This document shows, piece after piece, positions 16,194 to 44,842 of a stretch of DNA of 64,000 nucleotides (its first letter is position 1; the number at the start of each line of letters is the position of its first letter). This DNA is from Acidimicrobiales bacterium. Its GTDB lineage: Bacteria > Actinomycetota > Acidimicrobiia > Acidimicrobiales > CADCSY01. The notes beneath the pieces are model-generated. The model searched no databases, was not told the DNA's origin, and saw only the letters and a list, made by a program, of their open reading frames with translations. The stretch lies in assembly GCA_025463335.1 (NCBI GenBank), contig JAOBWJ010000163.1, forward strand, positions 14,671 through 78,670, read 5' to 3'. The position numbers and the translations under genes were made by a program.

Positions 16194-16206
16194 GGGTACG
16201 AACGTG

Positions 16207-18200: not shown

Positions 18201-18402
18201 CAGACGGGTTCCTTGACATTGGGACGGCTTGAGCACCGCCGGATCATTCCCGGATCCGTCGACCCCACACCCACATGCTGCCCGGCAGGGCCGATTCGCA
18301 TGGCTGAGACCGTACGGGCCTAGATGAGAGAATGGCATCCCACATCTGAGGGGTCTCGCAAGGTAGACGCGCCCGACTCATAGGAGAGGACTCGCTACTC
18401 GG

Positions 18403-19424: not shown

Positions 19425-20193
19425 GGCGCAGCACAATACGGCGGTGGACGAGAACGCCCTGAGGCGATTGCTGGACGGGGTGCGCTCCGGAGCGGTGCCG
19501 GCCGACGACGCGGTGGCCCTCCTGCGCCGCCTTCCGTGGGCCGATCTCGGCTTCGCCCGGGTCGACCACCACCGGGCGCTACGGCAGGGCGCGGCCGAAG
19601 CGGTGTACGCCCCGGGCAAGACGGCCGAGCAGTGCGCGGCGATCGTGGCCGAGCTGCTGAGTACGCCCGGTTCGCCGGTTGTGCTGACCCGTGCGGAAAA
19701 GGACCAGGTCGACGCGGTCACCGCGATTGCCGCCGACGCCACGGTCACCGGCACCACCGTCACCTGGCGCCACGCGGCGCCGAGGGATGCCGATGTCGTG
19801 GTGCTGACCGCGGGCACTGCTGACCAGCCGGTCGCCGACGAGTGCGCCGCCACGCTCACCGCCATGGGTGCGGCGCCCACCCGCATCGCTGATGTGGGCG
19901 TCGCCGGCCTGCACCGCCTGTTGGCCGAGATCGACCGCATCGCCGCCGCCGACGTCGTGGTGGTCATCGCCGGGATGGAGGGGGCGTTGGCGAGCGTGGT
20001 GGGCGGGATCGCCAGCGGCCCGGTGGTCGCCGTCCCCACGAGCACCGGCTACGGCGCCGCCTTCGAGGGGGTCACCGCCCTCCTCGGCATGCTGGCCTCC
20101 TGTGCCGCCGGCATCACCGTGGTCGGCATCGACAACGGGTTCGGCGCGGCCCTGGCCGTGCACCGGATGCTTACGGTAGGCACCCGTGGCTGA
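19423..20193 (+). CDS. larB: LarB-type nickel-pincer cofactor biosynthesis protein (AIR-carboxylase/PurE-like)
   Basis: Inner part of track ORF 18976..20193. Motifs TAGTADQPVADE, GVAGLHRL, AGMEGALASVVGG, VAVPTSTGYGA, DNGFGAA. ATG 19423 shares the CATG tetranucleotide with the pheA start; GTG 19444 is an alternative. Confidence 0.85.
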   Translation: MAQHNTAVDENALRRLLDGVRSGAVPADDAVALLRRLPWADLGFARVDHHRALRQGAAEAVYAPGKTAEQCAAIVAELLSTPGSPVVLTRAEKDQVDAVTAIAADATVTGTTVTWRHAAPRDADVVVLTAGTADQPVADECAATLTAMGAAPTRIADVGVAGLHRLLAEIDRIAAADVVVVIAGMEGALASVVGGIASGPVVAVPTSTGYGAAFEGVTALLGMLASCAAGITVVGIDNGFGAALAVHRMLTVGTRG

Positions 20194-21406
20194 GCCGCTC
20201 CGCACCATCGCCTGGTTCCACTGCTTCTCCGGCATCGCCGGCGACATGGCGCTCGGCGCGCTGGTCGACGCCGGTGCCGACCTCGACGCCGTCCTCGAGA
20301 TCGTGCGCCGCCTGCCCGTGTCGGGCTGGTCGGTGCACGCCGAGCCCACACTCCGGGGTGGGATCGCCGCCACCCACATGGTCGTCGACGCCCACGAGAC
20401 CACCGTGATCCGCACCTACGCCCACATCACCGGCCTCATCGAGGAGGCCCGGCTCCCCGACCGCGTCCGCGAGCGGGCGGCCGCCATCTTCTTCGCCATC
20501 GCCACCGTTGAGGCCCGCCTCCACCGGCGGAGCATCGAGCAGGTCCACTTCCACGAGGTGGGCAGCCTCGATGCCATCGTCGACGTGGTCGGCGTGGCCG
20601 CCGCCCTGGAGGTGCTCGGGGTCGACGAGGTGGCATCCAGCCCGGTGGCGACCGGCACCGGCATGATCCGGGCCGCCCACGGCCTCTTGCCCAACCCCGC
20701 CCCGGCGGTGGTCGAGCTGTTGGCTGGCGCGCCCACCCACGGTGTCGACCTCCCCGTTGAGCTCACCACGCCCACCGGTGCGGGCATCCTCGCCGCCCTG
20801 TGCCGCACGTGGGGTCCGATGCCGGCGATGACGATCACCCGCAGCGGCTTCGGCGCCGGCACCCGCGACCTCGACGCTCTGCCCAACATGACCCAGGTCG
20901 TGCTGGGCACGGCCGGCGGCACGGCCACCACCGGCCAGCCGGTGGTGCTGCTGGAGGCCAACGTCGACGACGCCACCGGCGAGACACTGGCCCACGCCCT
21001 GGCCATGCTCCTGGAGGCGGGGGCCCACGACGCGTGGGTCACGCCCATCGTCATGAAGAAGGGCCGCCCCGCCCACACCGTCCACGTGCTCGCCGACCCC
21101 GCCCTCGCCGGCCAGCTCGCCGGCGTGCTGCGGGACGAGACCGGCACCCTCGGCGTGCGCGGGACGTCGCTCGAGCGGTGGCCGTCGCCCCGCACGTTCG
21201 AAGAGGTCGAAGTGCACGGTCTGCCGGTACGGGTCAAGGTCGGGGCCGGCCGGGTGAAGGTCGAGCACGACGACGCCGCCCTGGCCGCCCGCCGCATCGG
21301 CCTCCCGCTGCGCGAGGTGGTGTCGCTGGCCGAGGAGGCCTGGCGCCGCGGCCGGGGCGCCGGCACGGTCGTCGAGCTGCCCACGACCCCCGACGACGCC
21401 GGATGA
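20186..21406 (+). CDS. larC: LarC-type nickel insertion protein (DUF111)
   Basis: Track ORF. N-terminus WFHCFSGIAGDMALGALVDAG and HFHEVGSLDAIVDVVG are characteristic of the family. Overlaps the larB end by 8 nt. Confidence 0.85.
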   Translation: MAEPLRTIAWFHCFSGIAGDMALGALVDAGADLDAVLEIVRRLPVSGWSVHAEPTLRGGIAATHMVVDAHETTVIRTYAHITGLIEEARLPDRVRERAAAIFFAIATVEARLHRRSIEQVHFHEVGSLDAIVDVVGVAAALEVLGVDEVASSPVATGTGMIRAAHGLLPNPAPAVVELLAGAPTHGVDLPVELTTPTGAGILAALCRTWGPMPAMTITRSGFGAGTRDLDALPNMTQVVLGTAGGTATTGQPVVLLEANVDDATGETLAHALAMLLEAGAHDAWVTPIVMKKGRPAHTVHVLADPALAGQLAGVLRDETGTLGVRGTSLERWPSPRTFEEVEVHGLPVRVKVGAGRVKVEHDDAALAARRIGLPLREVVSLAEEAWRRGRGAGTVVELPTTPDDAG

Positions 21407-23803: not shown

Positions 23804-23935
23804 CGGAGGGCCACTTTTCGCTTCATGATGGTCGACACCTGTCCGATACCTCGTCAGGCGGTGCTCTTTGGGGTGCCGCGAACCGAACGCCACGAACGGG
23901 ACGAACTGCACGTGCTGGTACCGGAAGGGTTCTCG

Positions 23936-26900
23936 ATGCAGCAGCGCCTCGCGAGCGTGCTGGACGAGCTGGACGAGACGGTGTTCCTCGTCGAAGTCGA
24001 ACCCGGTCCCTCCCTGCGCTTCCTCACGCTGAGCGGACGATCCATGCTCCAATCCGACGGTACGCGGGCGAACTACGACGGCTGGCTGGTCGAGGACGTG
24101 CTCCCCGTCGAGAGCGCCGAGCGGGCGTACCACTGGTGGGTCAAGGCCTTCGAGACGAGGACGACCCAGCACTACCAGGCCGAAGCGCCGTTCCCGGACG
24201 GGCGCATCCGAATCTTCGACGTCACCGTCTTCCCCTGGAGCGGGGGCGAGCAGCTCGCCGGTGTGATCCGCGACATCACCAACGAGGCCCGCTCCCGCGA
24301 GCACGTCCAGGCGCGCGACGAGCTCAACCGCGCCGTGCTCGACGCCATCCCCACCGCCACCGCGGTGGTCGACGCCGACGGCGAGATCCGCATGGTGAAC
24401 GCCGCCTGGGTCGTCGATGCCACCGACCTCGAGCTGGCGGTCGCCCTGCCAGGGGACGACTTCCTCGCCAGCGTCGAGCACGTGCCGGGCGCCGCCATGG
24501 CGACCCGACTGGTGCTGGATGGCGACCGGGCGTCGTTTCACACCGACTACCTCGACCGGGGCCGCTGGTTCAGCCTGCGGGTGACGCCGTTCGAAGTCGA
24601 CGGGACCCGAGGCGCCATCCTCACCCGGAGCGATGTCACCGCCCGCGTCAACGAGCAACACGCCGTCGAACAGCTCCACGCCCGCTGGCAGGCCGCCTTC
24701 GCCAGCGCGTCCATCGGGATGGGGTTGGTCAACGGCGAGGGCCGTTTCGTGCAGGTGAACCCCAAGCTGTGTGAGCTCTTCGCCCGCGGCGAGGAGCAGA
24801 TGCTCGCCGTCACGGCGCAGGACGTCACCCCGGCCGACGACGTGAGCCTCCGCGAACGGATCACCCACCTCCCGTCGAGCACGAGCGGCATGGACGGTTT
24901 CGAGAAGCGCTACCTCCGGCCCGACGGCTCGATCATCTGGGTCTGGGTCAACTGGTCGACCGTGCACGACGACGCCGGTGACCTCTACTTCATGCAGTTC
25001 CAGGACATCGGCTCCCGCAAGCGGGCCGAGGCGCGCCTGGCCGACCACCACGCTGTGCTCGAGCTGGTGGCCACCGGCGCCGACCTGGAGACCGTCCTCC
25101 AGAAGGTCGCCGACGTCGGCGAGGCCCACCTCCCCGGCAGCCACTGGGTCCTCATGGCCACCGGGAGCATGGGGTGGTCCGAGCACGTGACCTCCGTGGG
25201 CGTCGATGCGGCCCATGCCCTCGAGCTCGACGAGGCGTACCGCACCTTCGCCCCGACCCGGTGGCGGCAATCGCCCGGCGTGATCGTGATCCCATCCGAC
25301 GGCGGCACGCCGGTCGGCGCCGCCCTGCGCCTGGGTGGCGCCTGGACCCTCCCGGTCGTCGAGGACGGCGGCCAGGTCGCCGGTTTCGTCGTGGTCCACG
25401 ACCCACCCGAGCACGCCGACCCGGAGGACCTCGCCCTCGTCGAGCAGCTCGGCTCGGTCGTGCGCATCGTCCTCCAGCGCGACGCCGCCACCCGGCGCCT
25501 GGCCGAACGCATGCTCGAGGACAGCCTGACCGGCCTGCCCACCCGCACCCTGTTCCACCGCCGAGCCGAGCAGGCCCTCGCCCGCATCGGTCACGGCTCG
25601 CTCGGCGTCGCCGTCCTGAGCGCCGATCTCGACCGCTTCGGGCGCATCAACGAGAGCCTCGGTCACCTGGCCGGCGACGAAGTGCTGACGGAGGTGGCCC
25701 GCCGTCTCCGCAGCGCGGTGCCGTCGCCCGACACGGTGGCCCGGGGCGGGGGCGACGAGTTCCTGGTCCTCGTGGAGGACATCGCCGACGAGGCCGCCGC
25801 CATGGCGCTTGCCGACCGGCTCCTGGCCGAGCTGCGCCGACCCCTCGTCATGGACGACATCGAGTTCACGTGCCCGGCCAGCATCGGCGTGGTGTTCCGC
25901 GACACCGAGGGCAGCAGCGTCGAGATGCTCGAGGGCGACGCCGCCCTGGCCATGGCCGCGGCCAAGGCCAAGGGACGCGACCGCGCCGAACTGTTCACCG
26001 ACGACCTCCGGGTGGCCATGCCACGGCTGAGCCTCGAACGCGAGCTGGCCCAGGCCGTCACCAAGCAGCAGTTCGTCGTCCACTTCCAGCCCGAGGTGGA
26101 GCTGGCCACCAACCGCGTCGTCGGCGTGGAGGCGCTGGTCCGCTGGGACCACCCTGAGCGGGGCCTGCTGCCGCCGGCCGATTTCGTGGGCGCGGCCGAG
26201 GAATCCGGTGTCATCATCGACATCGGGCGCCAGGTCCTCGAGGAGTCGTGCGCCCGGCTGGCCGAATGGTCGGCCGACGACCACCCGCAACTCGCCATCG
26301 CCGTCAACCTCTCGGCCCGCCAGCTGGCCGACCCCGGACTGGTCGAGTTCGTCCGCGCCGTCCTCGAGCGCCATGGCATCGAGCCATCGCGGCTGGTGCT
26401 GGAGATGACCGAGAGCACGCTCGTCGACGACGCCGACCGGGCCAGCGCGGCGTTTGCCGCCCTGCGGGACCTCGGCGTCAGCGTGGCCATCGACGACTTC
26501 GGCACGGGCTACTCGTCGCTGCGCTACCTCAAGCGCTTCCCCGCCGACGTGCTGAAGATCGACCGCTCGTTCGTCGACGGCCTCGGGCTCGACGCCGGCG
26601 ACTCGGCCATCGTCGCCGCCGTGATCCGGCTGGCCCACCGGCTCGACCTCACGGTGATCGCCGAAGGCGTGGAGACGCCCGAGCAGCTGGCCCACCTGAA
26701 GCGGCTCGGCTGCGAACAGGCCCAGGGCTACCTCTGGAGCCGGCCCATGACGGCCGAGGAGATGGGCGCCTTCCTGCAGCGGCCGCTCCCCGAGATCCCC
26801 GATGTCTTGGTGTCCCAGCTCGAGCCGGGTGACGACCGCAGCGAGCTGGATGAGCTGCTCGCGGTGCTGACGCACGAGCTGAGCACGCCGCTGACCGTGA

Positions 26901-27517
26901 TCGGCGGGTACGCCGAGATGCTCGCCGACCGCCTCGACCTCGACGACGCCGACGCCGGCGCCCGGACCGGCGTGGCCGCCATCGAGCGCAACGTCCACAA
27001 CCTGGGCCGGCTGGTGGCCGCCCTCGCCGACGCCCGGGGTCTCGGGAGTGGTGGCGATTCCGTCCGCTTCGATGCCCGCAGGTTCGTCGAGCAGACGATG
27101 GCCGACCTGGCGCCGATCCTCACCGGTCATGAGCTCGAGGTGCGGGCTGCCGAGGGGAACGTCGAGGCCAGCATCACCGCAGACCCGGTGGGCCTCAGCC
27201 AGATCCTCACCAACCTGATCGGCAACGCCACCAAGTTCAGCGAGCCCGGCAACCGGATCGAGGTCAGCGTCGAGACCGACGGCCGCCACGTCCGCATCGC
27301 CGTGGTCGACCACGGCGCCGGCGTCCCGCCGGAGCGGGTGGACGAGCTGTTCGGCCGCTTCGCCAGGCTGGGCTCGACCCGACGTGGCCTCGGACTCGGC
27401 CTCTACCTGTCCCGATCCATCGCCCGCCGCCACGATGGTGACGTGACGTATGAGGCCACCCCGGGCGGTGGCGCTACCTTCGTCGTCACTCTGCCGGCGA
27501 GCACGGAGGAACGATGA
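23936..27517 (+). CDS. Cytoplasmic multidomain sensor: PAS x3, GAF, GGDEF, EAL, HisKA, HATPase_c
   Basis: Track ORF 23825..27517. ATG 23936 is preferred (GGAAGGG 6 nt upstream). GGDEF: ARGGGDEFLVL. EAL: VEALVRW, VNLS, LEMTES, DDFGTGYSS, KIDRSF, AEGVET, QGY. H-box LAVLTHELSTPL. ATPase: NLIGNATKF, DHGAGVP, GLGLGLYL. No TM segment seen. Confidence 0.9.
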   Translation: MQQRLASVLDELDETVFLVEVEPGPSLRFLTLSGRSMLQSDGTRANYDGWLVEDVLPVESAERAYHWWVKAFETRTTQHYQAEAPFPDGRIRIFDVTVFPWSGGEQLAGVIRDITNEARSREHVQARDELNRAVLDAIPTATAVVDADGEIRMVNAAWVVDATDLELAVALPGDDFLASVEHVPGAAMATRLVLDGDRASFHTDYLDRGRWFSLRVTPFEVDGTRGAILTRSDVTARVNEQHAVEQLHARWQAAFASASIGMGLVNGEGRFVQVNPKLCELFARGEEQMLAVTAQDVTPADDVSLRERITHLPSSTSGMDGFEKRYLRPDGSIIWVWVNWSTVHDDAGDLYFMQFQDIGSRKRAEARLADHHAVLELVATGADLETVLQKVADVGEAHLPGSHWVLMATGSMGWSEHVTSVGVDAAHALELDEAYRTFAPTRWRQSPGVIVIPSDGGTPVGAALRLGGAWTLPVVEDGGQVAGFVVVHDPPEHADPEDLALVEQLGSVVRIVLQRDAATRRLAERMLEDSLTGLPTRTLFHRRAEQALARIGHGSLGVAVLSADLDRFGRINESLGHLAGDEVLTEVARRLRSAVPSPDTVARGGGDEFLVLVEDIADEAAAMALADRLLAELRRPLVMDDIEFTCPASIGVVFRDTEGSSVEMLEGDAALAMAAAKAKGRDRAELFTDDLRVAMPRLSLERELAQAVTKQQFVVHFQPEVELATNRVVGVEALVRWDHPERGLLPPADFVGAAEESGVIIDIGRQVLEESCARLAEWSADDHPQLAIAVNLSARQLADPGLVEFVRAVLERHGIEPSRLVLEMTESTLVDDADRASAAFAALRDLGVSVAIDDFGTGYSSLRYLKRFPADVLKIDRSFVDGLGLDAGDSAIVAAVIRLAHRLDLTVIAEGVETPEQLAHLKRLGCEQAQGYLWSRPMTAEEMGAFLQRPLPEIPDVLVSQLEPGDDRSELDELLAVLTHELSTPLTVIGGYAEMLADRLDLDDADAGARTGVAAIERNVHNLGRLVAALADARGLGSGGDSVRFDARRFVEQTMADLAPILTGHELEVRAAEGNVEASITADPVGLSQILTNLIGNATKFSEPGNRIEVSVETDGRHVRIAVVDHGAGVPPERVDELFGRFARLGSTRRGLGLGLYLSRSIARRHDGDVTYEATPGGGATFVVTLPASTEER

Positions 27518-27539
27518 GCCCGACGGTGATGGTGCACCC

Positions 27540-28235
27540 GTGAGCGGGCCCATCCGCGTCCTGGTCGCCGAGGACGACGTCGATCTGCAGGGCTTCCTGC
27601 GCGAGACCCTCGAAGCCGAGGGCATGCAGGTCCAGACTGCGGCCGACGGCGCCGGCACGCTGCTGGCCGTGGGTGCCGACCCGCCGGACATCGTGCTGCT
27701 CGACCTCGACCTGCCCGACCTCGACGGGCTCGACGTCCTGAGCGCGGTGCGCCGCCGGGGCGAGCTCCCCGTCATCGTGCTCACCGGCCGGCGCCTCGAA
27801 CAGGACCGCGTCGCCGGCCTCGAGCGAGGCGCTGACGACTACGTGCTCAAGCCGTTCTCGTCCCGCGAGCTCATCGCCCGCATCCGCACCGTGCTGCGCC
27901 GCGCCGACCACGGCGTGGACGCGACCGAAGCCGATGTGCTCACCCACGAGGGCCTGGTGATCGACCGCACGGCTCGGGAGGTCCTGGTCGAGGGCAGGAA
28001 GGTCGAGCTCACCAAGCGGGAGTTCGACCTCCTCGCGTTCCTGGCCGCCCACCCCCGCCGTGTGTTCTCCCGCCAGGAGCTGTTGAGCGAGGTGTGGGGC
28101 TCGTCCGAGGACTGGCAGGTGCCCGCCACCGTGACGGAGCACGTGCGCCGAGTCCGCCTCAAGCTGGAGACCGACCCCACCAACCCGAAGTGGATCCACA
28201 ACGTGCGAGGCGTCGGCTACCGCTTCGCGAGCTAG
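27540..28235 (+). CDS. OmpR/PhoB-family response regulator
   Basis: Track ORF 27450..28235 trimmed to GTG 27540, the only start codon between the upstream stop and the REC domain. IRVLVAEDD, VLLDLDLPDLDG, and C-terminal winged helix LTKREFDLLAFLA ... VRGVGYRF. Confidence 0.9.
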   Translation: MSGPIRVLVAEDDVDLQGFLRETLEAEGMQVQTAADGAGTLLAVGADPPDIVLLDLDLPDLDGLDVLSAVRRRGELPVIVLTGRRLEQDRVAGLERGADDYVLKPFSSRELIARIRTVLRRADHGVDATEADVLTHEGLVIDRTAREVLVEGRKVELTKREFDLLAFLAAHPRRVFSRQELLSEVWGSSEDWQVPATVTEHVRRVRLKLETDPTNPKWIHNVRGVGYRFAS

Positions 28236-28239
28236 CGAG

Positions 28240-31005
28240 TCAGGGGCTGGTTCGGCGCGGGAGCGTGAGCACCAGCTCCGAGCCTTGGGGCCGGCGGCGC
28301 CGGTAGTGCAGGTCCCCGCCGTGCGCCCGGGCGAGGCGGCGGGAGATGAACAGGCCGAGGCCCACGCCCTTCTTGTTCCGCTCCAAGCGGGCGAACTTCC
28401 GGAAGATGTCGCCCGCCCGCTCGGGGGCCACACCCGGTCCCTCGTCAGCCACGATCACGGTGACCTCGTCCTCGTCGGCCTCGAACCACACCACGATCGG
28501 GGTCCCGGGCGGGCTGAACTTGTGGGCGTTGGTCAGCAGGTTGACGATGATTTGCTCGACCCGGCGTCCGTCGGCCTCCACGTGCACGGCCGCCGCGCCC
28601 GCCAATTCGACGACGCGGTCCTCGGGCACCGCAAGGTGCACCACGTCCTCCACCAGCTCGACCAGGTCGAACGGCGTGACGCGAAGGCTGACGGTGCCGG
28701 CATCGAGCTGCTGGGCGTCGGCCAGGGTGGCGACCAGGTGCTCGATGCGCTCCGCGTTCCGGGCCACGGCCGCCACCACCTCGGCGGCCTTGGGGATGTC
28801 GGCCACCAGCGTGGCCAGGCGTTCACACTGGCCCTTGACGACGGTGAGGGGCGTGACCAGCTCGTGGGTCAACACCGAGAGCACCTCGCCCGTGGACAGG
28901 ACGGCCGGCTCCTCGGCCTGGGCCAGGGCCGCCGCAACCGGATGGGTGGCGGTGGTTGGCGCCCAGCCCGACGCCAGCTGCACGGCGTCGCCGGGCGGGC
29001 ACGGCATCGACCACCGATAGCCCTGGGCCAGCTCGCAGCCGATGCGCTCGAGCTCGGCCAACTGTCCATCGGTCTCCACGCCCTCCGCAACCACGACCAA
29101 CCCGAGGGCCCGGCCCAGGTCGACGACGGCTTTCACGATGACCGCGTCCTCACTCTCGCGGTCGAGACCGGCAACGAACGAGCGGTCGATCTTCAGGAAG
29201 TCGACCGGGAACCGCTTCAGGTAGGCCAGCGACGAATGGCCGGTGCCGAAGTCGTCGATCGCGAGCTGCACGCCGAGGGCCTTGAGCTCTCGCAGGGTGG
29301 CCAGCGAGACCTCGGCGTCCTCCATGAGTGTGGACTCGGTGATCTCGAGCGAGAGCCGGGACGGCTCCAGCTGGTGGCGGGCCAACGTCTCGCCCACGGT
29401 GGCGACGAGGTGGGGGTCGGCGATCTGGCGAGCCGACAGGTTGACACTGATCGTGATGGGGTGCTCGGGCAGCTCGTCGCGCCACGCCGCCAGCTGCCGT
29501 CCGGCTTCGTCCAGCACCCACGCCCCGATGGGGACGATGAGAAAGGTGTCTTCGGCCACGTCCATGAACGAGCTCGGCAACAGCATGCCGAGCTCGGGGT
29601 GGTCCCATCGCAGGAGGGCCTCGAAACCGGTGAGGGCACCGTCGCTGAGTCGCACGATCGGCTGGTAGTGGAGGACGAGCTCGCCGCGATCGAGCGCGTG
29701 TCGCAGCTCGCTGGCCACCTGGGCCTTGCGCAGCGCCTCGGAGCGCATGCCGTGATCGAACAGTTCGATGCGGCCCCGGCCTCGATCCTTGGCGTGGTAC
29801 ATGGCCGCGTCGGCGTCACGTAGCAGCGTCGACGCGGTCTCCCCCGGCACCCCGGTGCCGAGCACGATCCCGACGCTGGGCGTGACGTAGAACGCGCGGC
29901 CCGCGACCAGGAAGGGATGGGACACGGAGGCGGTGAGGCGCTCGGCCAGGGCCACGGCCTCGGCCGGGCCGGTCAGCTGCTCGCAGCACACGGCGAACTC
30001 GTCGCCGCCCATGCGAGCCACCGTGTCCTCGGAGCGGAGCACGCCTTCGAACAACGAGCCCACCGCCTGGAGGATCTCGTCGCCGGCGTGGTGCCCGTAC
30101 GTGTCGTTGACGATCTTGAACCGGTCGAGGTCGACGAAGAGCACGGCGATGGTCCCCGGATGCCGGCGCAGACGGGTCAGCGCCCGGTCGAGCCGGTCGA
30201 GGAACAGTGCGCGGTTCGGGAGACCGGTCAGGGGGTCGTGCAGGGCCTGGTGCGCGAGTGTCACCTGAAGGGCACGACGCTCGGAGTTGTCCATCGACGC
30301 CCCGACCAAGCCGTGGAAGCCGATCTCCGGCGCATCGAGCTTCTCGAGGGTAGCGAGGATGGGGATGGCCGTCCCGTCCTTGCGGCTGGTGACGAACTCG
30401 CCACTCCACCTGCCGTCCTCGGCGACGGTGGCGAGGATCGAGGTGCGGAGCTCGGACGGCGCCGCGATCGTCAGCTCGTTGATGTCGTGGCCGAGCGCTT
30501 CTTCCGGCTGGTAGCCGTACAGCTCGGTGGCCCGTCGGTTCCACAGCACGACGACGCTTGCGTCGTCTGTGACCACCACCGCCGTTGGGAGGGAGTCGAG
30601 CAGCCGGGTCTCGAGGGACCCGGCCACCGCGGCCCGCCGCTGGGCGGTGACGTCATCGCCCGAGATGACGATCGCCCGGACCGCGGGATCGTGGAGCAGG
30701 TTGACCACGGTCAGGTCGAGCTCCCGCCAGGCGCCCACGAGGGGGCGGGCCCGAACCCGCAGCTCGACGCGCTCGTCCGGGGCGGCCGTGGCGGCGGCGA
30801 AGGCATCCATGGCCCGGTCGAGGTCGGCTGGGTGGATGTTGCGGAAACCCGACTCGCCCATCACGGCGTCATCGGTCGTGCCCAGCAGCAGCTTGGTCTG
30901 TTCCGACACGTGCAGGACCCGCGCGTCGGCATCGAGGAGGCAGAAGATCTCCGACCCCGCGTCCGGGACGTCACGCGCCACCGCGCCCTCGTCCGTCGTC
31001 GTCAT
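28240..31005 (-). CDS. Cytoplasmic multidomain sensor: PAS x2, GGDEF (RxxD I-site), EAL, HisKA, HATPase_c
   Basis: Track ORF. Purine-rich AAGAAGGTGGG lies directly upstream of ATG 31005. GGDEF: RSEDTVARMGGDEFAV. EAL: FEALLRW, VNLS, LEITES, DDFGTGHSS, KIDRSF, AEGVET, QGY. H-box LSVLTHELVTPL. ATPase: NLLTNAHKF, DEGPGV, GVGLGLF. Confidence 0.9.
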   Translation of the reverse strand: MTTTDEGAVARDVPDAGSEIFCLLDADARVLHVSEQTKLLLGTTDDAVMGESGFRNIHPADLDRAMDAFAAATAAPDERVELRVRARPLVGAWRELDLTVVNLLHDPAVRAIVISGDDVTAQRRAAVAGSLETRLLDSLPTAVVVTDDASVVVLWNRRATELYGYQPEEALGHDINELTIAAPSELRTSILATVAEDGRWSGEFVTSRKDGTAIPILATLEKLDAPEIGFHGLVGASMDNSERRALQVTLAHQALHDPLTGLPNRALFLDRLDRALTRLRRHPGTIAVLFVDLDRFKIVNDTYGHHAGDEILQAVGSLFEGVLRSEDTVARMGGDEFAVCCEQLTGPAEAVALAERLTASVSHPFLVAGRAFYVTPSVGIVLGTGVPGETASTLLRDADAAMYHAKDRGRGRIELFDHGMRSEALRKAQVASELRHALDRGELVLHYQPIVRLSDGALTGFEALLRWDHPELGMLLPSSFMDVAEDTFLIVPIGAWVLDEAGRQLAAWRDELPEHPITISVNLSARQIADPHLVATVGETLARHQLEPSRLSLEITESTLMEDAEVSLATLRELKALGVQLAIDDFGTGHSSLAYLKRFPVDFLKIDRSFVAGLDRESEDAVIVKAVVDLGRALGLVVVAEGVETDGQLAELERIGCELAQGYRWSMPCPPGDAVQLASGWAPTTATHPVAAALAQAEEPAVLSTGEVLSVLTHELVTPLTVVKGQCERLATLVADIPKAAEVVAAVARNAERIEHLVATLADAQQLDAGTVSLRVTPFDLVELVEDVVHLAVPEDRVVELAGAAAVHVEADGRRVEQIIVNLLTNAHKFSPPGTPIVVWFEADEDEVTVIVADEGPGVAPERAGDIFRKFARLERNKKGVGLGLFISRRLARAHGGDLHYRRRRPQGSELVLTLPRRTSP

Positions 31006-31064
31006 CCCACCTTCTTCTCGTCACGATCGGGCTCGACGTTGAGCAATCGACGCAGGTTTCCCCC

Positions 31065-31895
31065 ATGAAGCGGCGACCGACCTTCAGCCACCACACTGGA
31101 GCGATCGACGCCCGACCCGCCCCCCGTACGCCGACCCCGGCCGCCCGCCTGCGCACGGTCCTCGTCGACGACGTCGAGGACATCCGGGCCCTCCTGCGCC
31201 TCGTGATGGAGCAGGACGGCCGGTTCGAGGTGGTGGGCGAGGCGGCGGATGGCAGGGAGGCCATCGCCCTCGTCACCGAGCACCAGCCCGACGTCGTCGT
31301 ACTCGACCTGACGATGCCGATCATGGACGGCCTCACGGCGCTGCCGACGCTGCGTCAGGCCGCTCCCGGGGTGCGGGTCGTGATCCTCTCCAGCTTCCCG
31401 GTCGACCAGATGGGCCCGGTCGCCGAGCAGGCCGGCGCCGTCGGCTATCTGGAGAAGGGCCGCAACGTGCCGACGCTGGCCGCCGACATCCACCGGCTGG
31501 CCACGGTGCTCGAGGCGGTGGAGGCGGTGCTCGAGAAGGAGCTGCCGGCCGAGCCCCGCAGCGCCGGCCGGGCGCGGGAGGCGGTGACCTCCGCCCTCGT
31601 GACCGAGGTGCCCGACGCCGCCCTCGACACGCTCGTGCTGCTCACCAGCGAGCTGGTCACCAACGTGGTGGCCCACGCCCGCACGTCGTGCCACCTCGGC
31701 GTCGAGCTGTTCCCCGACGTGGTCCGGGTCAGCGTCTCCGACGAGGACGACCGGCCGCTCCGGCCCCGGCACGCCAGCGCTGACGCCGAGTCCGGCCGGG
31801 GCCTGGGGCTGGTGGCGATGCTGAGCTCGAACTGGGGGATCATCACCCACGAACGGGGCAAGACGGTCTGGTTCGAGGTCCCCCGGGGCGCCTAG
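31065..31895 (+). CDS. REC domain fused to RsbW/SpoIIAB-like ATP-binding (HATPase_c_2) anti-sigma-type serine kinase domain
   Basis: Track ORF. REC: VLVDDVEDIR, VVVLDLTMPIMDG. C-terminal LLTSELVTNVVAHA and GRGLGLVAMLSSNWG match the RsbW-type N and G boxes. The start codon is uncertain because no clear SD is present. Confidence 0.8.
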   Translation: MKRRPTFSHHTGAIDARPAPRTPTPAARLRTVLVDDVEDIRALLRLVMEQDGRFEVVGEAADGREAIALVTEHQPDVVVLDLTMPIMDGLTALPTLRQAAPGVRVVILSSFPVDQMGPVAEQAGAVGYLEKGRNVPTLAADIHRLATVLEAVEAVLEKELPAEPRSAGRAREAVTSALVTEVPDAALDTLVLLTSELVTNVVAHARTSCHLGVELFPDVVRVSVSDEDDRPLRPRHASADAESGRGLGLVAMLSSNWGIITHERGKTVWFEVPRGA

Positions 31896-32299
31896 CTCGC
31901 CGGCTCGAGGACGACGACCGGGATCTGGCGGGCGCCGGCGGTCTTCTCGTACTCGGCAAAGCCGGGCATCTCCTGCTTCTGGCGCTCCCACAGGCGATCG
32001 CGCTCGTCGCCCTCGGCGACCCGGGCTACGACGTCACGCGTCTCGGTGCCGATCTCGAGGCGAACCGACGGGTTGGCCACCAGGTTGTGGAACCAGTCGG
32101 GGTGGGTCGGCGCCCCGGCCTTCGAGGCGAAGATGATCACGTCGTCGCCATCGACGCGTGCCACCAGGGGCGTCTGCCGCGCCACGCCGCTCTTTGCCCC
32201 GGTGTGGTGGACGATCACCATGTCGGCATCGCCGAACTGGGCCACCTTCCCGGCGTTGGCCCGGAACTCGTCGATCACCTGCTGGTTCCAATCACTCAT
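31892..32299 (-). CDS. Deazaflavin (F420)-dependent nitroreductase-family small oxidoreductase (DDN-like)
   Basis: C-terminal 135 codons of track ORF 31892..33121. ATG 32299 gives MSDWNQQVIDEFRANAGKV ... HHTGAKSG ... PDWFHNL, as in DDN/DUF385 proteins. Confidence 0.8.
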   Translation of the reverse strand: MSDWNQQVIDEFRANAGKVAQFGDADMVIVHHTGAKSGVARQTPLVARVDGDDVIIFASKAGAPTHPDWFHNLVANPSVRLEIGTETRDVVARVAEGDERDRLWERQKQEMPGFAEYEKTAGARQIPVVVLEPAS

Positions 32300-32323
32300 T
32301 CCGTCGACCGTAGCCTCCACGTC

Positions 32324-32869
32324 ATGCGGTGCTTCGGCGACGGTGATCCGATCTACGAGCGGTACCACGACGAGGAGTGGGGCGTGGCCGTGCGCGACGA
32401 GCGGGGGCTGTACGAGCGCATCTCGCTCGAGGCGTTCCAGTCCGGCCTGTCGTGGATCACCATCCTCCGCAAGCGAGAGGGCTTCCGGGCCGCGTTCGCC
32501 GGCTTCGATCCCGAGGTGGTGGCCGAGTACGGGCCGGCCGACGTCGAGCGGTTGCTGGGAGACGCCGCCATCGTGCGCAACCGGGCCAAGATCGGGGCGA
32601 CCATCGCCAACGCCCGGGCCGTGCTCGACCTCCGCGATGCCGGCACGTCGCTGCCCGACCTGCTCTGGTCGTTCGCCCCCACGACGCCCAACGCTCCTGC
32701 CGAGCGGCTCCACGACGTGCCGTCGACGACGCCCGAGTCCAAGGCCCTGGCCAAGGCGCTCAAGGCCCGCGGCTTCCGCTTCGTGGGCCCGACCACGGCC
32801 TACGCCGCCATGCAGGCGTGCGGGCTCGTCGACGACCACCTCGCAACCTGCCAAGTGCGGCGCCTGTAG
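32324..32869 (+). CDS. tag: DNA-3-methyladenine glycosylase I
   Basis: Inner part of track ORF 32087..32869. ATG 32324 gives MRCFGDGDPIYERYHDEEWG ... LEAFQSGLSWITILRKRE ... FVGPTTAYAAMQACGLVDDH. Confidence 0.9.
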   Translation: MRCFGDGDPIYERYHDEEWGVAVRDERGLYERISLEAFQSGLSWITILRKREGFRAAFAGFDPEVVAEYGPADVERLLGDAAIVRNRAKIGATIANARAVLDLRDAGTSLPDLLWSFAPTTPNAPAERLHDVPSTTPESKALAKALKARGFRFVGPTTAYAAMQACGLVDDHLATCQVRRL

Positions 32870-32909
32870 GCGTCGCGCGAGGTCCCGGCGCAAGGAGGCA
32901 GCACGTTTT

Positions 32910-33182
32910 TCAGTCGACCGGTTCGAGCATGACCTCGTCGACGTAGCACCACAGCCACCGCTCCCCGGGCTGGAACGAGCGGATGATCGGGTGCTGGGTG
33001 CCACCGAAGTGCTTGGTGGCGTGCTTGCCGGGCGACTGGTCGCAGCAGCCGACGTGACCACACGACATGCACATCCGAAGGTGGACCCAGTCACGCCGGC
33101 CGGCAGCCAGGCAGTCCTCACAGCCGGGCGCCGAGGGCGTCACGTCACGCATCTGGCCGAGGTGGGAGCAGACCTCCATCAC
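32910..33182 (-). CDS. UBP-type zinc-finger protein
   Basis: Track ORF. Cys/His-rich: CEDC ... HLRMCMSCGHVGCCD ... KHATKHF. Confidence 0.75.
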   Translation of the reverse strand: MMEVCSHLGQMRDVTPSAPGCEDCLAAGRRDWVHLRMCMSCGHVGCCDQSPGKHATKHFGGTQHPIIRSFQPGERWLWCYVDEVMLEPVD

Positions 33183-33639: not shown

Positions 33640-34473
33640 TCACGGCAGCGGCACCAGCAGCACGGGCGAGACCGACCGCCGGACCACGACGGCCGGCTCG
33701 CTGTTGTCGAGCAGGTGGTGGATGCCCGCGCGGGCGTGGGCGCCAACGACGACCAGCGACGCCGGGTTGAACCGCAGGTACGTCACCACCCCGTCGGCCG
33801 GGCGGATCGGATCCCACACGGTCACGGGCTCGACCTCGACCGGGCTGCTCGACGCGTAGGGCTCGACCACCTGGCGCAGACGGTCCTCCACGTCGCCCGA
33901 CGGGCCGAACCGGCGGCGGACCGGCCCGGCGCCCACCGGCTCCGGCACCGGCTCGGCCACGGTGACGGCCCGGACCGGCTCCCGAAGCAGTCGGCCCCAG
34001 CCCAGGGCCGCCGGGAGCACGGTGACGACCGAGGCCGACGTGGGGTCGACCGCTGCCACCACGCCCTCCCCCGGCCACGCCTGGTCGACCTCGGGCCCGA
34101 CGACGACGATCGGGTCGTGGCCCCGGGCCACCACGTCGACTGCCACCGAGCCCAACAGGGCGGCAGATCGGCCCCGGCCGTGACTGGCCATGCAGGCCAC
34201 CGCCGAGCCCAGCCGCCGGAGCGTCTCGTGGATCTCGCCGGCCGGGTCGCGGTCGACCACGACCGCGCGACGGACCCGCCGGCCCGGCAGCTCGACATCG
34301 GCGAGCGCTCGCTCCCGCTCGGGGATCTCCTCGACCGTGTCGACGGTGCTGAGCAGGTGGATCTCGGCATCGAGCGCCCCCGCCAACCAGTCGGCGATCG
34401 GCAGGGCGAGCAGCGAGAAGCTCGAGCCGTCGAGGGGCACCACGACTGCGGTGATGGACTCGGGCACGTTCAT
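33640..34473 (-). CDS. Universal stress protein, tandem USP domains
   Basis: Track ORF. Two USP-like halves, each ending in G-x-H/S-G-R/A-type and VPVLLV-type motifs (MASHGRGRSAALLGSVA; VVGAHARAGIHHLL ... SPVLLVP). Confidence 0.8.
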   Translation of the reverse strand: MNVPESITAVVVPLDGSSFSLLALPIADWLAGALDAEIHLLSTVDTVEEIPERERALADVELPGRRVRRAVVVDRDPAGEIHETLRRLGSAVACMASHGRGRSAALLGSVAVDVVARGHDPIVVVGPEVDQAWPGEGVVAAVDPTSASVVTVLPAALGWGRLLREPVRAVTVAEPVPEPVGAGPVRRRFGPSGDVEDRLRQVVEPYASSSPVEVEPVTVWDPIRPADGVVTYLRFNPASLVVVGAHARAGIHHLLDNSEPAVVVRRSVSPVLLVPLP

Positions 34474-34522
34474 GTCCGCTTGATCTCCTGGTCGCTGAGG
34501 TGGTGCTCGGGGGTGGCGAAGG

Positions 34523-35101
34523 TCATGGCATGACCGTCCGAGTGAACGGGCGACGACCCGTGCGGGGATCGAGCTGGCGCAGCCGCCATGCCAGCGCGAG
34601 GCGCACGACGCCGGCGAAGATCGCGTACCAGCCGATCAGCCACGTGATCACCAGGGCGCCGGCGCCCGGGGTGATCACGAGGAGGACGGCGAACAGCACC
34701 GACAGCACGCCGGCCACGGCCAGGAGCCACTCGCCGCGAAGCTCACGCCGCAGCCGCACCGCGGCCACGATCTCGAGCACGCCGGTGACGAACGCCCACC
34801 CGGCGACGACGAAGAGCAGAGCCAGGGCGGTGATGCCGGGCCAAACGAACGTGATGATGCCGGCGGCCACGCCGGCCAGGCCGATGAGGACGACGAGGGC
34901 CTTGGATGTCCCGTCGTGCGACCCGCTGGTGAAGGCGGCGACCAGCATCGACACGCCGTCGATCAGGGCCAAGGCGCCGAACAGCAGGATCAGCGCGGTG
35001 AGCGTGAGTCCCGGCCAGATCAGGGTGACCAGACCGAACAGCACGGCGGCGGCGCCTCGAATGGCGAAGCTCCGGCGGTCACCGACGTCGTACAGGATCA
35101 T
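34523..35101 (-). CDS. HdeD/DUF308-family membrane protein
   Basis: Track ORF 34523..35128 trimmed to ATG 35101 (GGAGG 8 nt upstream). Six hydrophobic segments with repeated G-x-x-x-I/L-x-G-I/V patterns. Confidence 0.75.
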   Translation of the reverse strand: MILYDVGDRRSFAIRGAAAVLFGLVTLIWPGLTLTALILLFGALALIDGVSMLVAAFTSGSHDGTSKALVVLIGLAGVAAGIITFVWPGITALALLFVVAGWAFVTGVLEIVAAVRLRRELRGEWLLAVAGVLSVLFAVLLVITPGAGALVITWLIGWYAIFAGVVRLALAWRLRQLDPRTGRRPFTRTVMP

Positions 35102-35153
35102 CGCGGCAACCTCCACGTTTGGCCGCACGGGTTGGGATCGCCGAACCCCTCCA

Positions 35154-37802
35154 TCAGACGCCGACCAGCTCCTGCTCGGGCGCCGCGGTCGGGGCGTCTC
35201 CCCAGGTGATGACCAGCTCGCCGTCCCGGACCTCGACCCGGATCACGGCGCCCTCCTGGATGGCACCCCCGAGCAGGGCCCGGCCGATCCGGGTCTCCAC
35301 CTCGTGGGCGATGAAGCGCTTGAGCGGGCGGGCGCCGTACACCGGGTCGTAGCCCTCGTGGGCGATGAGGCGCAGCGCGTCCTCCGTCACCTCCATCGAC
35401 ATCCGCTGGTCGGCCAGGCGGCTGCGCACGTCATCGAGCTGGAGGTCGACGATGCGCTCGATCTCCTGTTCGGTGAGCGGCTTGAACAGCACGATGTCGT
35501 CGATGCGGTTGAGGAACTCGGGGCGGAAGTGGCCCCGCAACTCGGCCATGACGCGGGCCTCGGCGTCGGCTGCGATCTGGCCGTCGGGGGTGAGCCCGTC
35601 GAGCAGGTAGATCGAGCCGATGTTCGACGTCATGATGATCACGGTGTTGCGGAAGTCGACCGTCCGGCCCTGGGCGTCGGTCAGCCGGCCGTCGTCGAGG
35701 ACCTGCAGCAGCGTGTTGAACACGTCGGCGTGGGCCTTCTCGATCTCGTCGAACAACAGCACCGAGTAGGGCTTGCGCCGCACGGCCTCGGTGAGCTGGC
35801 CACCCTCCTCGTAGCCCACGTAGCCCGGAGGGGCACCGACCAGGCGGCTCACCGTGTGCCGCTCCTGGTACTCGCTCATGTCGATGCGGACGATGTTCTC
35901 CTCGGTGTCGAACAGCGCCTCGGCCAGGGCCTTGGCCAGCTCGGTCTTCCCGACGCCGGTCGGGCCGAGGAAGACGAACGAACCGATCGGGCGGCGGGGG
36001 TCCTTGATGCCCGATCGGGCCCGGATGATGGCGTCGGTCACCAGCTGCACGGCCTGGTCCTGGCCGATGATCCGCTCGTGGAGGATCTCGTCGAGCCGGA
36101 GCAACTTCTGCCGCTCCCCCTCCTGGAGGCGGCTCACCGGGATGCCGGTCCACCGGGAGACGATGTTGGCGATCTCGGCCTCGGTCACCTCCTCGCGGAG
36201 CAGCCGGTGGGTCCCTTGCTTGGCGGCCAACCGCTCCTCCTCGGCCTTGAGCTGGCGCTCGAGCTCGGGCAGCTTCCCGTGGCGCAACTCGGCGGCCGTG
36301 TTGAGGTCGTAGGCCCGCTCGGCGGCGTCGGCCTGCTGGCGGATGCGCTCGATCTCCTCGCGCAGCGACTGCACCTTCTTGAGGGCGTGGCGCTCGGCCT
36401 CCCACTGGGCTCGCATGGCGTCGGCCTCCGAGCGCAGGTCGGCCAGCTCCCTGCGCAGTTCCTCCAGCCGGTCCTTGCTGGCCCTGTCCTTCTCCTTGGC
36501 GAGCGCCGCCTCCTCGATCTCGAGGCGGGTCACGCGCCGCGTCAGCTCGTCGAGCTCGGCCGGCATCGAGTCGATCTCGGTGCGCAGCATGGCGCACGCC
36601 TCGTCGACCAGGTCGATGGCCTTGTCCGGGAGGAACCGGTCGGAGATGTAACGATGGGACAGGACCACGGCGGCGACCAGGGCGGTGTCCTGGATCCCGA
36701 CGCCGTGGAAGACCTCGAAGCGCTCACGCAGGCCGCGGAGGATGGAGATGGCGTCCTCCTCGCTCGGCTCGTCGACCAGTACGGGCTGGAACCGGCGCTC
36801 GAGGGCCGCGTCCTTCTCGATGTGCTTGCGGTACTCGTCGAGCGTGGTCGCGCCGATGAGGTGCAGCTCGCCGCGGGCCAGCATGGGCTTGAGCATGTTG
36901 CCGGCGTCCATGGCTCCCTCGGCGGCGCCGGCGCCCACCACGTTGTGGACCTCGTCGATGAACAGAAGGATCCGACCCTCGGCCGCCGTGACCTCGGTGA
37001 GCACGGCCTTCAGGCGCTCTTCGAACTCGCCGCGGTACTTGGCCCCGGCCACCAGGGAGCCCATGTCGAGCGCGAACACCGTCTTGTCCCTGAGCCCCTC
37101 GGGCACGTCGCCGCGCATGATCCGTTGGGCCAAGCCCTCGACGATGGCCGTCTTGCCCACGCCCGGATCACCGATCAGCACCGGGTTGTTCTTGGTCTTG
37201 CGGGAGAGGATCTGGACGGTGCGACGGATCTCGGCATCGCGGCCGATGACCGGGTCGAGCCGGCCGGAACGGGCGTCGGCCACCAGATCCCGCCCGTACT
37301 TCTCGAGCGCCTCGTACGCCACCTCGGGCATGGCCGACGTCACCCGCTGGTTGCCTCGTATCGACGTCAACGCCTGGAGGAAGGCGTCCCGCGTGATCCC
37401 GTGCTGGGCCAGCAGCCGGCCGGCAGCGGTGGACGAGCCCTCGTCGAGGAGGGCCACGACGAGGTGCTCGACGGAGACGTAGTCGTCCTTCAGCCGCTTG
37501 GCCTGCTGCTCGGCGCTGTCCAGCAGGCGGGACAGGCGTTGGGTGATGAACACCTGACCGGGCGAAGCGCCCGGGCCCGTGACCTTCGGCCGTCGGGCCA
37601 GCTCGGCCTCCAGGTCGGCCTTCAGCCGGTCGGGGTCGGCGCCGGCCGCGGCGAGCAGCCGGGGCGTCAGGCCCTCCGGTTGGTCGAGCAGGGCGAGGAG
37701 GAGGTGCTCCCCATCCACCTCGGTGTGCCCGAAGCGCAGGGCCTTGGTCTGGGCGTCCTGCAGCGCCTCTTGCGACTTCTGGGTCAGGCGCTCGAGATCC
37801 AC
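35154..37802 (-). CDS. clpB: ATP-dependent chaperone/disaggregase ClpB
   Basis: Track ORF. Canonical N-terminus [18 protein letters not shown]. Two AAA+ modules ([15 protein letters not shown]; [17 protein letters not shown]) and a coiled-coil middle domain. Confidence 0.95.
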
Positions 37803-38104
37803 GGCGATCCTCCGGTTCGTGGTCGGGTGCGAAGGGCGGCTTCCAGCACTTCGATGCGGTCGAGCAGATCCACCACCACACCGAGGGCGGCGTAGTTGAG
37901 CGACAGGCCGGCGCGGAGCCGCTCCAGGCGGGCGGCGGCCGCGAGCTGGGCGGGGGGGAACCGCAGCTCGCCGGCCGGGCCCCGCGTCGCCTCCAACAAG
38001 CCCAGGGCGACGAGGCGTCGTACGAGCTCGGGATGCAGCCCGCTCGCTCGGGCGAAGGTCTCGAGGTCGAGGCGGGTGCGGCGCACCAGCACCGTTGTCG
38101 TCAT
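37784..38104 (-). CDS. MerR-type chaperone-operon regulator/modulator (CbpM-like or HspR-like)
   Basis: C-terminal 106 codons of track ORF 37784..38356. ATG 38104 overlaps the J-protein stop (ATGA). [27 protein letters not shown] ... fits a MerR-type HTH in the CbpM arrangement. The 3' end overlaps the clpB start by 19 nt. Confidence 0.65.
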
Positions 38105-39546: not shown

Positions 39547-39548
39547 GG

Positions 39549-41432: not shown

Positions 41433-41441
41433 GTGTCCTCC

Positions 41442-41942: not shown

Positions 41943-41955
41943 GGAGATCTCCTCG

Positions 41956-44659: not shown

Positions 44660-44842
44660 GCCGCCTCCTCTCGTGTGCTTCGGAGCGTAGCCATCTGTCC
44701 TTCAGGGACGCACGGGCCTCCCCCCAAAGAGCCACTCGACCACAGACCGCGCGGCACTCGTCGGTCTGGCGGAAACCAGCGGGCTCGGTTTCGTCCCAGC
44801 GGGACATGGCCGCCGGGATGCGCCCGAAGGAGGCTGGACGCT

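Follow-up and report, generated by a model that had tools for sequence, protein, structure and literature searches.

Can the turnover of a second messenger be coupled directly to a two-component system when both functions are carried on one polypeptide? Connections between cyclic di-GMP (c-di-GMP) and two-component signaling ordinarily take one of two forms: a kinase phosphorylates an enzyme composed of a receiver (REC) domain and GGDEF or EAL domains, or free c-di-GMP binds to the kinase, as in CckA, RavS and SgmT. A different arrangement is found in a 64,000-nucleotide stretch of an Acidimicrobiales genome (contig JAOBWJ010000163.1, positions 14,671 to 78,670; hereafter, the window; G+C content about 71%), where two paralogous PAS-GGDEF-EAL-kinase proteins bracket an OmpR-type response regulator and adjoin a gene for a REC-RsbW-like protein, as established from open reading frames (ORFs) and Pfam matches. 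A first-pass annotation of this sequence had proposed that the first kinase helix of each protein emerges directly from the EAL domain and, thus, that c-di-GMP metabolism and phosphotransfer are hard-wired to each other. The present analysis led to another answer, of moderate confidence: the paralogues are probably dual-output sensors with a tethered, largely autonomous transmitter for the adjacent regulator. The genes in question are as follows.

23936..27517, + strand: protein 1, 1193 residues from this ATG; PAS-PAS-PAS-(GAF-like)-GGDEF-EAL-linker-DHp-CA (Pfam, AlphaFold, orthologues)
23825, + strand: alternative ATG of protein 1, upstream, giving 1230 residues
27540..28235, + strand: OmpR-family response regulator, REC plus winged helix (Pfam)
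28240..31005, - strand: protein 2, 921 residues; PAS-PAS-GGDEF-EAL-linker-DHp-CA (Pfam, AlphaFold)
31065..31895, + strand: protein with REC and HATPase_c_2 (RsbW-like) domains (Pfam)

Protein 1 is followed on the same strand, after 22 nt, by the regulator. Protein 2 converges on the regulator with a stop-to-stop gap of 4 nt (28236..28239), and its start lies 59 nt from that of the divergent REC-HATPase_c_2 gene; all of these ORFs, strands and gaps agree with the first-pass annotation. Because protein 1 orthologues are 1190-1203 residues long, its start is probably at or just upstream of 23936. The paralogues are 44% identical over 690 collinear residues, and because this identity runs through the GGDEF domain, the EAL domain, the linker and the kinase, the fusion is older than the duplication. 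Protein 2 is 100% identical to a protein in the NCBI database from an Acidimicrobiales metagenome-assembled genome (MAG), where it is labeled merely "diguanylate cyclase domain". A Kyte-Doolittle scan found no transmembrane segment in either protein, in agreement with the first-pass annotation: the highest 19-residue means (1.58 and 2.00) fall within the EAL core and include charged residues. Both fused proteins are accordingly predicted to be soluble, with cytoplasmic sensors.

The domains of the two proteins, including the dimerization and histidine phosphotransfer (DHp) hairpin and the catalytic and ATP-binding (CA) domain, were delimited as listed below; pLDDT denotes the AlphaFold predicted local distance difference test score.

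23936..25006, + strand: three PAS domains of protein 1, residues 1-113, 137-233 and 257-357 (Pfam PAS_4/PAS/PAS_9; AlphaFold secondary structure)
25085..25399, + strand: GAF-like domain of protein 1, residues 384-488 (Pfam sub-threshold; AlphaFold alpha/beta fold, pLDDT 61-82)
25520..25984, + strand: GGDEF domain of protein 1, motif intact; PSPD at the I-site position, without RxxD (Pfam 6e-35)
26039..26746, + strand: EAL domain of protein 1, complete catalytic motif set (Pfam 2.5e-79)
26780..26833, + strand: predicted flexible tether of protein 1, RPLPEIPDVLVSQLEPGD, 4 Pro in 18 residues (AlphaFold)
26834..27034, + strand: DHp (HisKA) hairpin of protein 1, helices 967-1002 and 1007-1033 (Pfam HisKA, AlphaFold)
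27062..27499, + strand: CA domain of protein 1, N, G1, F and G2 boxes (Pfam HATPase_c 7e-27; motif conservation)
29773..30246, - strand: GGDEF domain of protein 2, motif intact; RxxD I-site (RSED) present (Pfam 1.4e-45)
29002..29709, - strand: EAL domain of protein 2 (Pfam 7e-75)
28894..28968, - strand: predicted flexible tether of protein 2, GWAPTTATHPVAAALAQAEEPAVLS, 25 residues, 3 Pro (AlphaFold)
28699..28893, - strand: DHp hairpin of protein 2, helices 705-733 and 738-769 (AlphaFold; Pfam HisKA)
28258..28677, - strand: CA domain of protein 2 (Pfam HATPase_c 1.9e-23; AlphaFold)

Pfam borders in protein 1, in the numbering of the 1230-residue form, are 566-720 for GGDEF, 739-974 for EAL, 1008-1067 for HisKA and 1120-1225 for HATPase_c; those in protein 2 are 134-226 for PAS, 254-411 for GGDEF, 433-668 for EAL, 706-770 for HisKA and 812-918 for HATPase_c. 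The HisKA matches (1e-8 and 35.5 bits for protein 1; 2.5e-8 and 34.3 bits for protein 2) exceed the Pfam gathering cut-off of 26.9. This search, together with the translations, bore out the domain content and the motifs that had been listed for both proteins. The GAF domain reported for protein 1 was upheld in part: GAF_2 and GAF fall below their gathering scores (23.0 vs 28.6 and 21.3 vs 22.4), and residues 384-488 are modeled by AlphaFold as an alpha/beta fold that, judged by eye, looks GAF-like.

In both proteins, the EAL catalytic and metal-binding set (EAL, N, ExTE, DDFGTG, K, EGVE, QG) is complete and the GGDEF active-site motif is intact, predicting phosphodiesterase and cyclase activity, and the EAL fold superposes on the EAL structures of MucR, MorA and PdeA at 1.4-1.9 Å. 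The C-terminal 230 residues constitute a canonical HisKA-class kinase core according to Pfam HisKA and HATPase_c and to sequence matches in the PDB, of which the best are the 8u4x histidine kinase (3e-26), SrrB and KdpD; the kinase assignment, on which the earlier proposal depended, therefore stands. The predicted phosphoacceptors lie on DHp helix 1: His980 of protein 1 (codon 26873-26875) in an H-E-L-S-T motif and His714 of protein 2 (codon 28864-28866) in H-E-L-V-T. Both conform to the E/DxxT/N phosphatase motif (H-E-x-x-T) beside the histidine, which characterizes bifunctional kinase/phosphatases, and the N, G1, F and G2 boxes of the CA domain are likewise present in both. From the QGY motif to the histidine, the distance is 50 residues (protein 1) or 53 (protein 2); measured from the Pfam EAL end, it is 43 or 46, in line with the 40-50 residues estimated earlier.

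Whether the EAL domain could drive the kinase mechanically depends on the segment between them. AlphaFold models were made of monomers only, from alignments of 119 sequences for protein 2 and 96 for protein 1, with mean pLDDT of 89.5 and 85.3, respectively, and confident domains. In protein 1, residues 949-966, which lead from the last EAL helix to DHp helix 1, have no predicted secondary structure; the 10-residue pLDDT blocks of the junction are 89 and 50, the latter being block 961-970, and residues 964-971 score below 50. Residues 680-704 of protein 2 likewise have no regular secondary structure, with pLDDT blocks of 67, 44 and 53. DHp helix 1 begins at residue 967 in protein 1 and at 705 in protein 2, and because it starts just 13 and 9 residues ahead of His980 and His714, it has no signaling-helix extension. 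Across 94 family members, the central linker is 12-65 residues long, proline makes up 12.3% of it, vs a background of 4.8% in the whole proteins, and at least one proline occurs in 90 of the 94. The distance from QG to the histidine is flat modulo 7 in these members, without heptad periodicity. Thus, neither the models of the two proteins nor the 94 linkers displayed the continuous helical, heptad-phased linker of canonical PAS- or HAMP-coupled kinases. In contrast, a continuous helix is modeled between the sensors and the GGDEF domain, at residues 496-526 of protein 1 and 241-255 of protein 2. The models and alignments therefore describe the EAL-DHp segment as a flexible, proline-rich and variable tether, not a rigid signaling helix, and the proposal that the DHp helix emerges directly from the EAL domain is not supported, given an intervening unstructured, low-pLDDT, proline-rich segment of 18 residues in protein 1 and 25 in protein 2.

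To assess the extent of this architecture, the part of protein 2 that covers EAL, linker and kinase (residues 433-921) was compared exhaustively by phmmer with 1.84 billion representatives of clusters at 50% identity. The best 146 matches were parsed with domain queries prepared for this analysis, and in about 100 of them the EAL domain runs straight into the kinase in one collinear match. Among these, 42 are GGDEF-EAL-HK (where HK is histidine kinase), 18 PAS-GGDEF-EAL-HK, 15 EAL-HK (many of them fragments) and 10 REC-GGDEF-EAL-HK; a few carry an extra C-terminal REC. The same search returned 14 representatives in the reverse, classical hybrid order, e.g., HK-REC-REC-GGDEF-EAL. All members with an organism name are from Acidimicrobiales or Actinomycetia, including one from an isolate, Iamia majanohamensis (WP_272735542.1, an 823-residue GGDEF-EAL-HisKA-HATPase protein; complete genome CP116942.1). 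At the Iamia locus (L086, 5001..7472), an OmpR-type regulator and a single-domain REC protein are encoded 1.5-2.5 kb upstream on the opposite strand. The EAL-kinase fusion is, thus, a real, lineage-enriched family rather than a one-off, and its architecture is rare in absolute terms without being singular, comprising at least about 100 clusters at 50% identity.

The family nevertheless appears to be unstudied, and it occurs in a group of bacteria that is mostly uncultured. No paper describing an EAL-to-kinase fusion was found in the literature searched, which contained census remarks alone, to the effect that EAL or GGDEF domains at times co-occur with kinase domains (PMC9756655; PMC1183210). 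Sequence and Foldseek searches of the PDB returned no chain spanning EAL and kinase, and NCBIfam equivalog matches to the whole fusion were partial and far under their cut-offs. This agrees with the first-pass annotation, in which no characterized example was known; the architecture itself is not unique.

Conservation within the family centers on two of the predicted activities. Of 111 members, 101-109 have intact EAL motifs (EAL, ExTE, DDFGTG, K, EGVE) and kinase motifs (H, N, G1, G2), and over 90% conserve the EAL substrate-binding and catalytic residues alongside the kinase motifs. A canonical GGDEF motif is present in just 38 of the 95 members that have this domain. The conserved core of the family, on which selection acts, is, as judged from these motifs, a phosphodiesterase plus a kinase; the two proteins of the window belong to the minority that keeps an intact cyclase site, protein 2 with its RxxD I-site in addition.

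Two other searches were unsuitable for counting. A profile scan of genome contigs with the EAL-kinase alignment picked up generic EAL patterns (DDFGTGYS, EALxRWxHP), matched the EAL part alone in 78 of the 80 loci retained and gave no taxonomic census. The sole full-length match among these loci, in a Tepidiphilus MAG (L010, 3598..7620), was rejected as a family member, being two ORFs split by an in-frame stop, with a kinase of a different subtype: a dCache-PAS-PAS-GGDEF-EAL ORF ends, and one codon further on, in frame, an ATG opens a 269-residue HisKA-HATPase ORF, followed by a gene for a GAF-PAS-HD-GYP protein. It is an independent proteobacterial juxtaposition and may reflect two genes, a fusion turned pseudogene or an error in sequencing. 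When the linker and kinase of protein 1 served as query in a word-indexed search, the long fused proteins, including protein 1 orthologues, were missed, but sensorless kinases were found.

These sensorless kinases are informative when viewed beside loci that retain the fusion. An Actinomycetia MAG (L001) keeps the whole cluster, i.e., a fatty-acid desaturase gene, a PaaX-like gene, the protein 1 orthologue, the regulator, the protein 2 orthologue and the REC-RsbW-like gene, with two extra genes inserted, and in several metagenomes orthologues of proteins 1 and 2 lie together on one contig. L002 and L003, two long contigs from metagenomes, have the flanks of the window (prephenate dehydratase, 82% identical; LarB, 80%; LarC, 82%). 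In the position of protein 1 (6001..6702), they encode a 233-residue kinase of DHp and CA (P0272, P0273), in which 20 residues precede the histidine at residue 21 and PAS, GGDEF and EAL domains are absent. This kinase sits after a gene for a MauE/DoxX membrane protein and is followed by the regulator (72% identical) and the REC-RsbW-like protein (69%); protein 2 is absent from these loci. It is 47.5% identical to the kinase of protein 1, and its DHp helix 1 is nearly identical.

In a neighbor-joining tree of 232 kinase modules, all fused modules, from about 104 clusters, lie in one clade, which 46 of 60 bootstraps set apart from the remaining PAS/GAF kinases. The sensorless kinases joined the protein 1 line, separate from protein 2 and the majority of fused members, in 59 of the 60. 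Each paralogue line has its own DHp helix 1, which does not vary inside the line; the two versions differ at about positions +9 to +16 after the histidine, a difference that does not discriminate between the OmpR-type regulator and the REC-RsbW-like protein as the partner of protein 2. The parsimonious reading of this tree would be that the fusion arose once, long ago, and that the PAS-GGDEF-EAL part was secondarily lost in one lineage. Because the sensorless kinase groups with the protein 1 line and has the same regulator and REC-RsbW-like gene, it was concluded that the kinase module can persist alone; DHp-CA, together with the regulator and the REC-RsbW-like protein, makes up a unit that is maintained even where the c-di-GMP enzymes are missing. 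A hard-wired link between c-di-GMP and the kinase is weakened both by a junction that is variable and without a helix and by an orthologous kinase that exists without sensor domains.

The presumed partners of the kinase are conserved as well. The regulator has Response_reg (4e-27) and Trans_reg_C (3e-25) domains, and the acidic pocket, phospho-Asp, T/S and K residues can be read in its translation. No NCBIfam equivalog was reached at the cut-off, the best being MtrA with 205 bits vs 300. It is 94% identical to its L001 counterpart at the same position. An OmpR-type regulator directly adjoins the fused gene in five of six loci examined and lies within 2.5 kb in the sixth, that of Iamia, in agreement with the two-component setting recognized earlier; the direct neighbors are those of the window (both proteins), L001, L084 and L085. 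In the window, the regulator shares an operon with protein 1, and the gene for protein 2 runs toward it from the opposite strand. The fused members at L084 and L085 are about 37-47% identical to those of the window, and there, too, an OmpR-type regulator is convergent on the 3' end of the gene. The stops of the fused kinase gene and the regulator overlap by 20 nt in L084 (4497..4516) and by 17 nt in L085 (8587..8603), and an overlap is also found in L001. Because convergent stops abut in the window and overlap in L084 and L085, there is no room for terminators, and the recurrence of this arrangement in distant members may bring about transcriptional interference or antisense effects.

The REC-RsbW-like protein is 82% identical to its counterpart in L001 (6764..7522), and its identity of 69% in L002 refers to 7438..8223; the gene is kept beside the regulator even where the kinase is sensorless. 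Its domain fusion suggests a phosphorelay input into a putative anti-sigma or partner-switching kinase, and the REC domain of the 31065..31895 protein is a possible second phosphoacceptor.

The interpretation of the two proteins as dual-output sensors draws on observed domain content, motifs, linker character, gene context and autonomy of the kinase module. In this scheme, the PAS inputs, and the GAF-like input of protein 1, would set c-di-GMP synthesis and hydrolysis through the helical junction, as in DosP, RbdA and MorA, and the DHp-dimerized kinase/phosphatase would act on the adjacent OmpR-type regulator and possibly on the REC domain of the REC-RsbW-like protein, such that one input would act on both the second-messenger level and transcription. 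Because the tether as modeled cannot carry helical torque or a piston motion, any cross-talk between EAL and kinase would operate via dimerization/avidity or proximity: the DHp dimer could hold the GGDEF/EAL halves together, or rearrangement of an EAL dimer could alter the meeting of the kinase halves. The phosphatase motif in both proteins and the distinct DHp helix 1 of each line suggest that the two kinases probably feed separate signals to the shared regulator, without forming heterodimers.

Several considerations weigh against this interpretation. Autophosphorylation, phosphotransfer, cyclase and phosphodiesterase activities are predicted from motifs, and the assignment of partners, including the REC domain served by each kinase, and any cross-talk are likewise conjectural. 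Low linker pLDDT in monomer models is no proof of disorder in a dimer, and predicted template modeling (pTM) scores of 0.50-0.61 leave the interdomain geometry open. Furthermore, QG-to-His spacing is fairly narrow (median 53, mostly 47-60), and the orthologues of each group share a conserved linker sequence, which could serve in docking. That more than 100 clusters have kept the fusion, together with the narrow spacing, suggests that the covalent link itself has been selected, whereas a purely independent dual-output model needs no such link.

The model of the first-pass annotation, in which the kinase/phosphatase is gated allosterically by c-di-GMP bound or turned over at the EAL (or GGDEF) domain, or the reverse, draws on the same features: an old and retained fusion, with its single clade of about 104 clusters, co-conservation of EAL residues and kinase motifs in over 90% of members, and concentrated spacing. 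It also has precedents, in that c-di-GMP regulates the histidine kinases CckA (PMC5026420), RavS (PMC6707612) and SgmT (PMC3509222). Against it stand the proline-rich, length-variable, low-pLDDT linkers in place of a continuous helix, the start of DHp helix 1 so near the histidine, and the sensorless orthologues, which have no EAL domain and still keep the regulator and the REC-RsbW-like partner; it is regarded as rather unlikely. A related proposal, that the proteins are direct converters of a second messenger into a phosphorelay, is improbable to much the same degree. Substrate-dependent rearrangement of EAL/GGDEF dimers would then change the assembly of the tethered DHp-CA halves, and the level of c-di-GMP or pGpG may set phosphorylation of the OmpR-type regulator, possibly also of a REC-controlled RsbW-like anti-sigma kinase, without a separate c-di-GMP receptor. 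Such a converter is compatible with the retained fusion, the joint conservation of EAL and kinase catalytic residues and the fairly narrow spacing, but its standing is lowered by the flexibility of the tether and the viability of sensorless orthologues.

Alternatively, the kinase module might serve mainly as a DHp dimerization scaffold, maybe one dependent on phosphorylation, that sets the balance of cyclase and phosphodiesterase, with signaling to the regulator being secondary. GGDEF catalysis requires two domains to come together and EAL domains are most active as dimers, which speaks for such a scaffold; the DHp hairpin is well formed in both models and is the sole obvious obligate dimerizer C-terminal to the EAL domain in both proteins. 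However, a scaffold would not need the fully conserved ATP-binding boxes, phospho-His and phosphatase motif, the regulator is conserved beside the gene, and plain PAS-GGDEF-EAL relatives, the great majority of homology-search matches, do without a kinase, all of which renders this a poor candidate. Least probable by far is an annotation or assembly artefact, in which a frameshift, chimera or missed stop joined a PAS-GGDEF-EAL gene to a small kinase gene. Although small stand-alone kinases of this type exist and the ORFs of the Tepidiphilus MAG are split only by an in-frame stop and one codon, the window contains two independent copies with uninterrupted ORFs and coding-type G+C at third codon positions (0.91-0.92), orthologues occur in many independent assemblies, including the complete Iamia genome, and about 100 distinct clusters have the same collinear join. 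This explanation was rejected as effectively refuted.

Either outcome of the choice between tethered dual-output sensors and gated kinases would be instructive. If the two halves communicate, these proteins would represent the most direct known coupling of second-messenger turnover to gene regulation; if they do not, they provide a clean natural dual-output sensor and would illustrate how a sensorless kinase acquires an input module or loses one. Natural versions with and without the c-di-GMP enzymes at one syntenic locus, together with the cultured host I. majanohamensis, make the question experimentally testable.

Other genes of the window include further signaling proteins. At a distance of 7 kb from the fused proteins, a CHASE-PAS-PAS-HisKA-HATPase kinase gene (13704..16610, - strand) shares 4 nt with the gene for a REC-PAS-GGDEF-EAL protein (11191..13707, - strand). 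Because this classical pair (11191..16610) lies near the fused proteins, both directions of coupling between two-component systems and c-di-GMP are present in one 20-kb stretch. A gene for a GAF-HisKA-HATPase kinase (16914..18338, - strand) is directly upstream of that for a REC-GerE (NarL-type) regulator (16207..16911, - strand), and four histidine kinases and three GGDEF-EAL proteins are encoded within about 20 kb. In the region 18501..21406, the prephenate dehydratase-ACT ORF (514 residues, - strand) is over-extended, its Pfam domain starting at residue 211 and its orthologue having 308 residues; LarB (AIRC; tblastn 19414..20172) and LarC (20186..21406), on the + strand, are a nickel-pincer cofactor gene pair. 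Just the C-terminal ~125 residues of a 409-residue ORF (31892..33121, - strand) match F420H2-dependent quinone reductase, and because the L001 orthologue has 136 residues, translation probably starts well downstream of the GTG given for this ORF. A stress cluster (33640..42245, - strand) consists of genes for a tandem universal stress protein (33640..34473), ClpB (35154..37802), DnaJ (38101..39024), DnaK (39549..41441) and an HSP20-domain protein (41442..42245), and is followed by a gene for a regulator with GGDEF_2 and PucR-HTH domains (42926..44701).

Compared with characterized proteins, the N-terminal 670-950 residues of the fused proteins match E. coli DosP and P. aeruginosa RbdA/PA0861, PA0575, MucR and MorA in sensor, helix, GGDEF and EAL, with motifs intact; this part gave PDB matches of 4e-117 (5m3c) and 3e-110 (4rnh), and the top Foldseek matches were DosP, PA0861, PA0575 and MorA; DosP, RbdA and MorA are the nearest relatives of solved structure. 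Unlike the proteins of the window, none of these five has a C-terminal DHp-CA transmitter. A functional parallel is offered by Myxococcus xanthus SgmT and its partner DNA-binding regulator DigR: a histidine kinase and a GGDEF-type domain are on one polypeptide and c-di-GMP is tied to a DNA-binding response regulator (PMC3509222). The proteins of the window differ in running from GGDEF-EAL to the kinase, with intact catalytic motifs and no REC domain between. SgmT reportedly has the order GAF-HK-REC-GGDEF, with the kinase N-terminal, a degenerate GGDEF domain that acts as a c-di-GMP receptor and no EAL domain.

In CckA (PMC5026420) and RavS (PMC6707612), the c-di-GMP level shifts the kinase/phosphatase balance or phosphotransfer specificity, an effect resembling that envisaged for gating here, but there, other proteins synthesize and break down the c-di-GMP, which binds to the kinase itself. 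The classical wiring, a kinase followed by a REC-GGDEF-EAL protein, and hybrid HK-REC-GGDEF(-EAL) proteins use the same domain vocabulary as the fused proteins, and HK-GGDEF "monster" proteins were mentioned in the census of Galperin in 2005 (PMC1183210). In the classical and hybrid systems, information flows from kinase to REC to enzyme, whereas in the window the kinase is C-terminal to the EAL domain, with no REC between, and the partner is a DNA-binding regulator. What sets these proteins apart is that enzymes for making and breaking c-di-GMP and a complete kinase are on one chain, an uncharacterized variant of well-known signaling parts.

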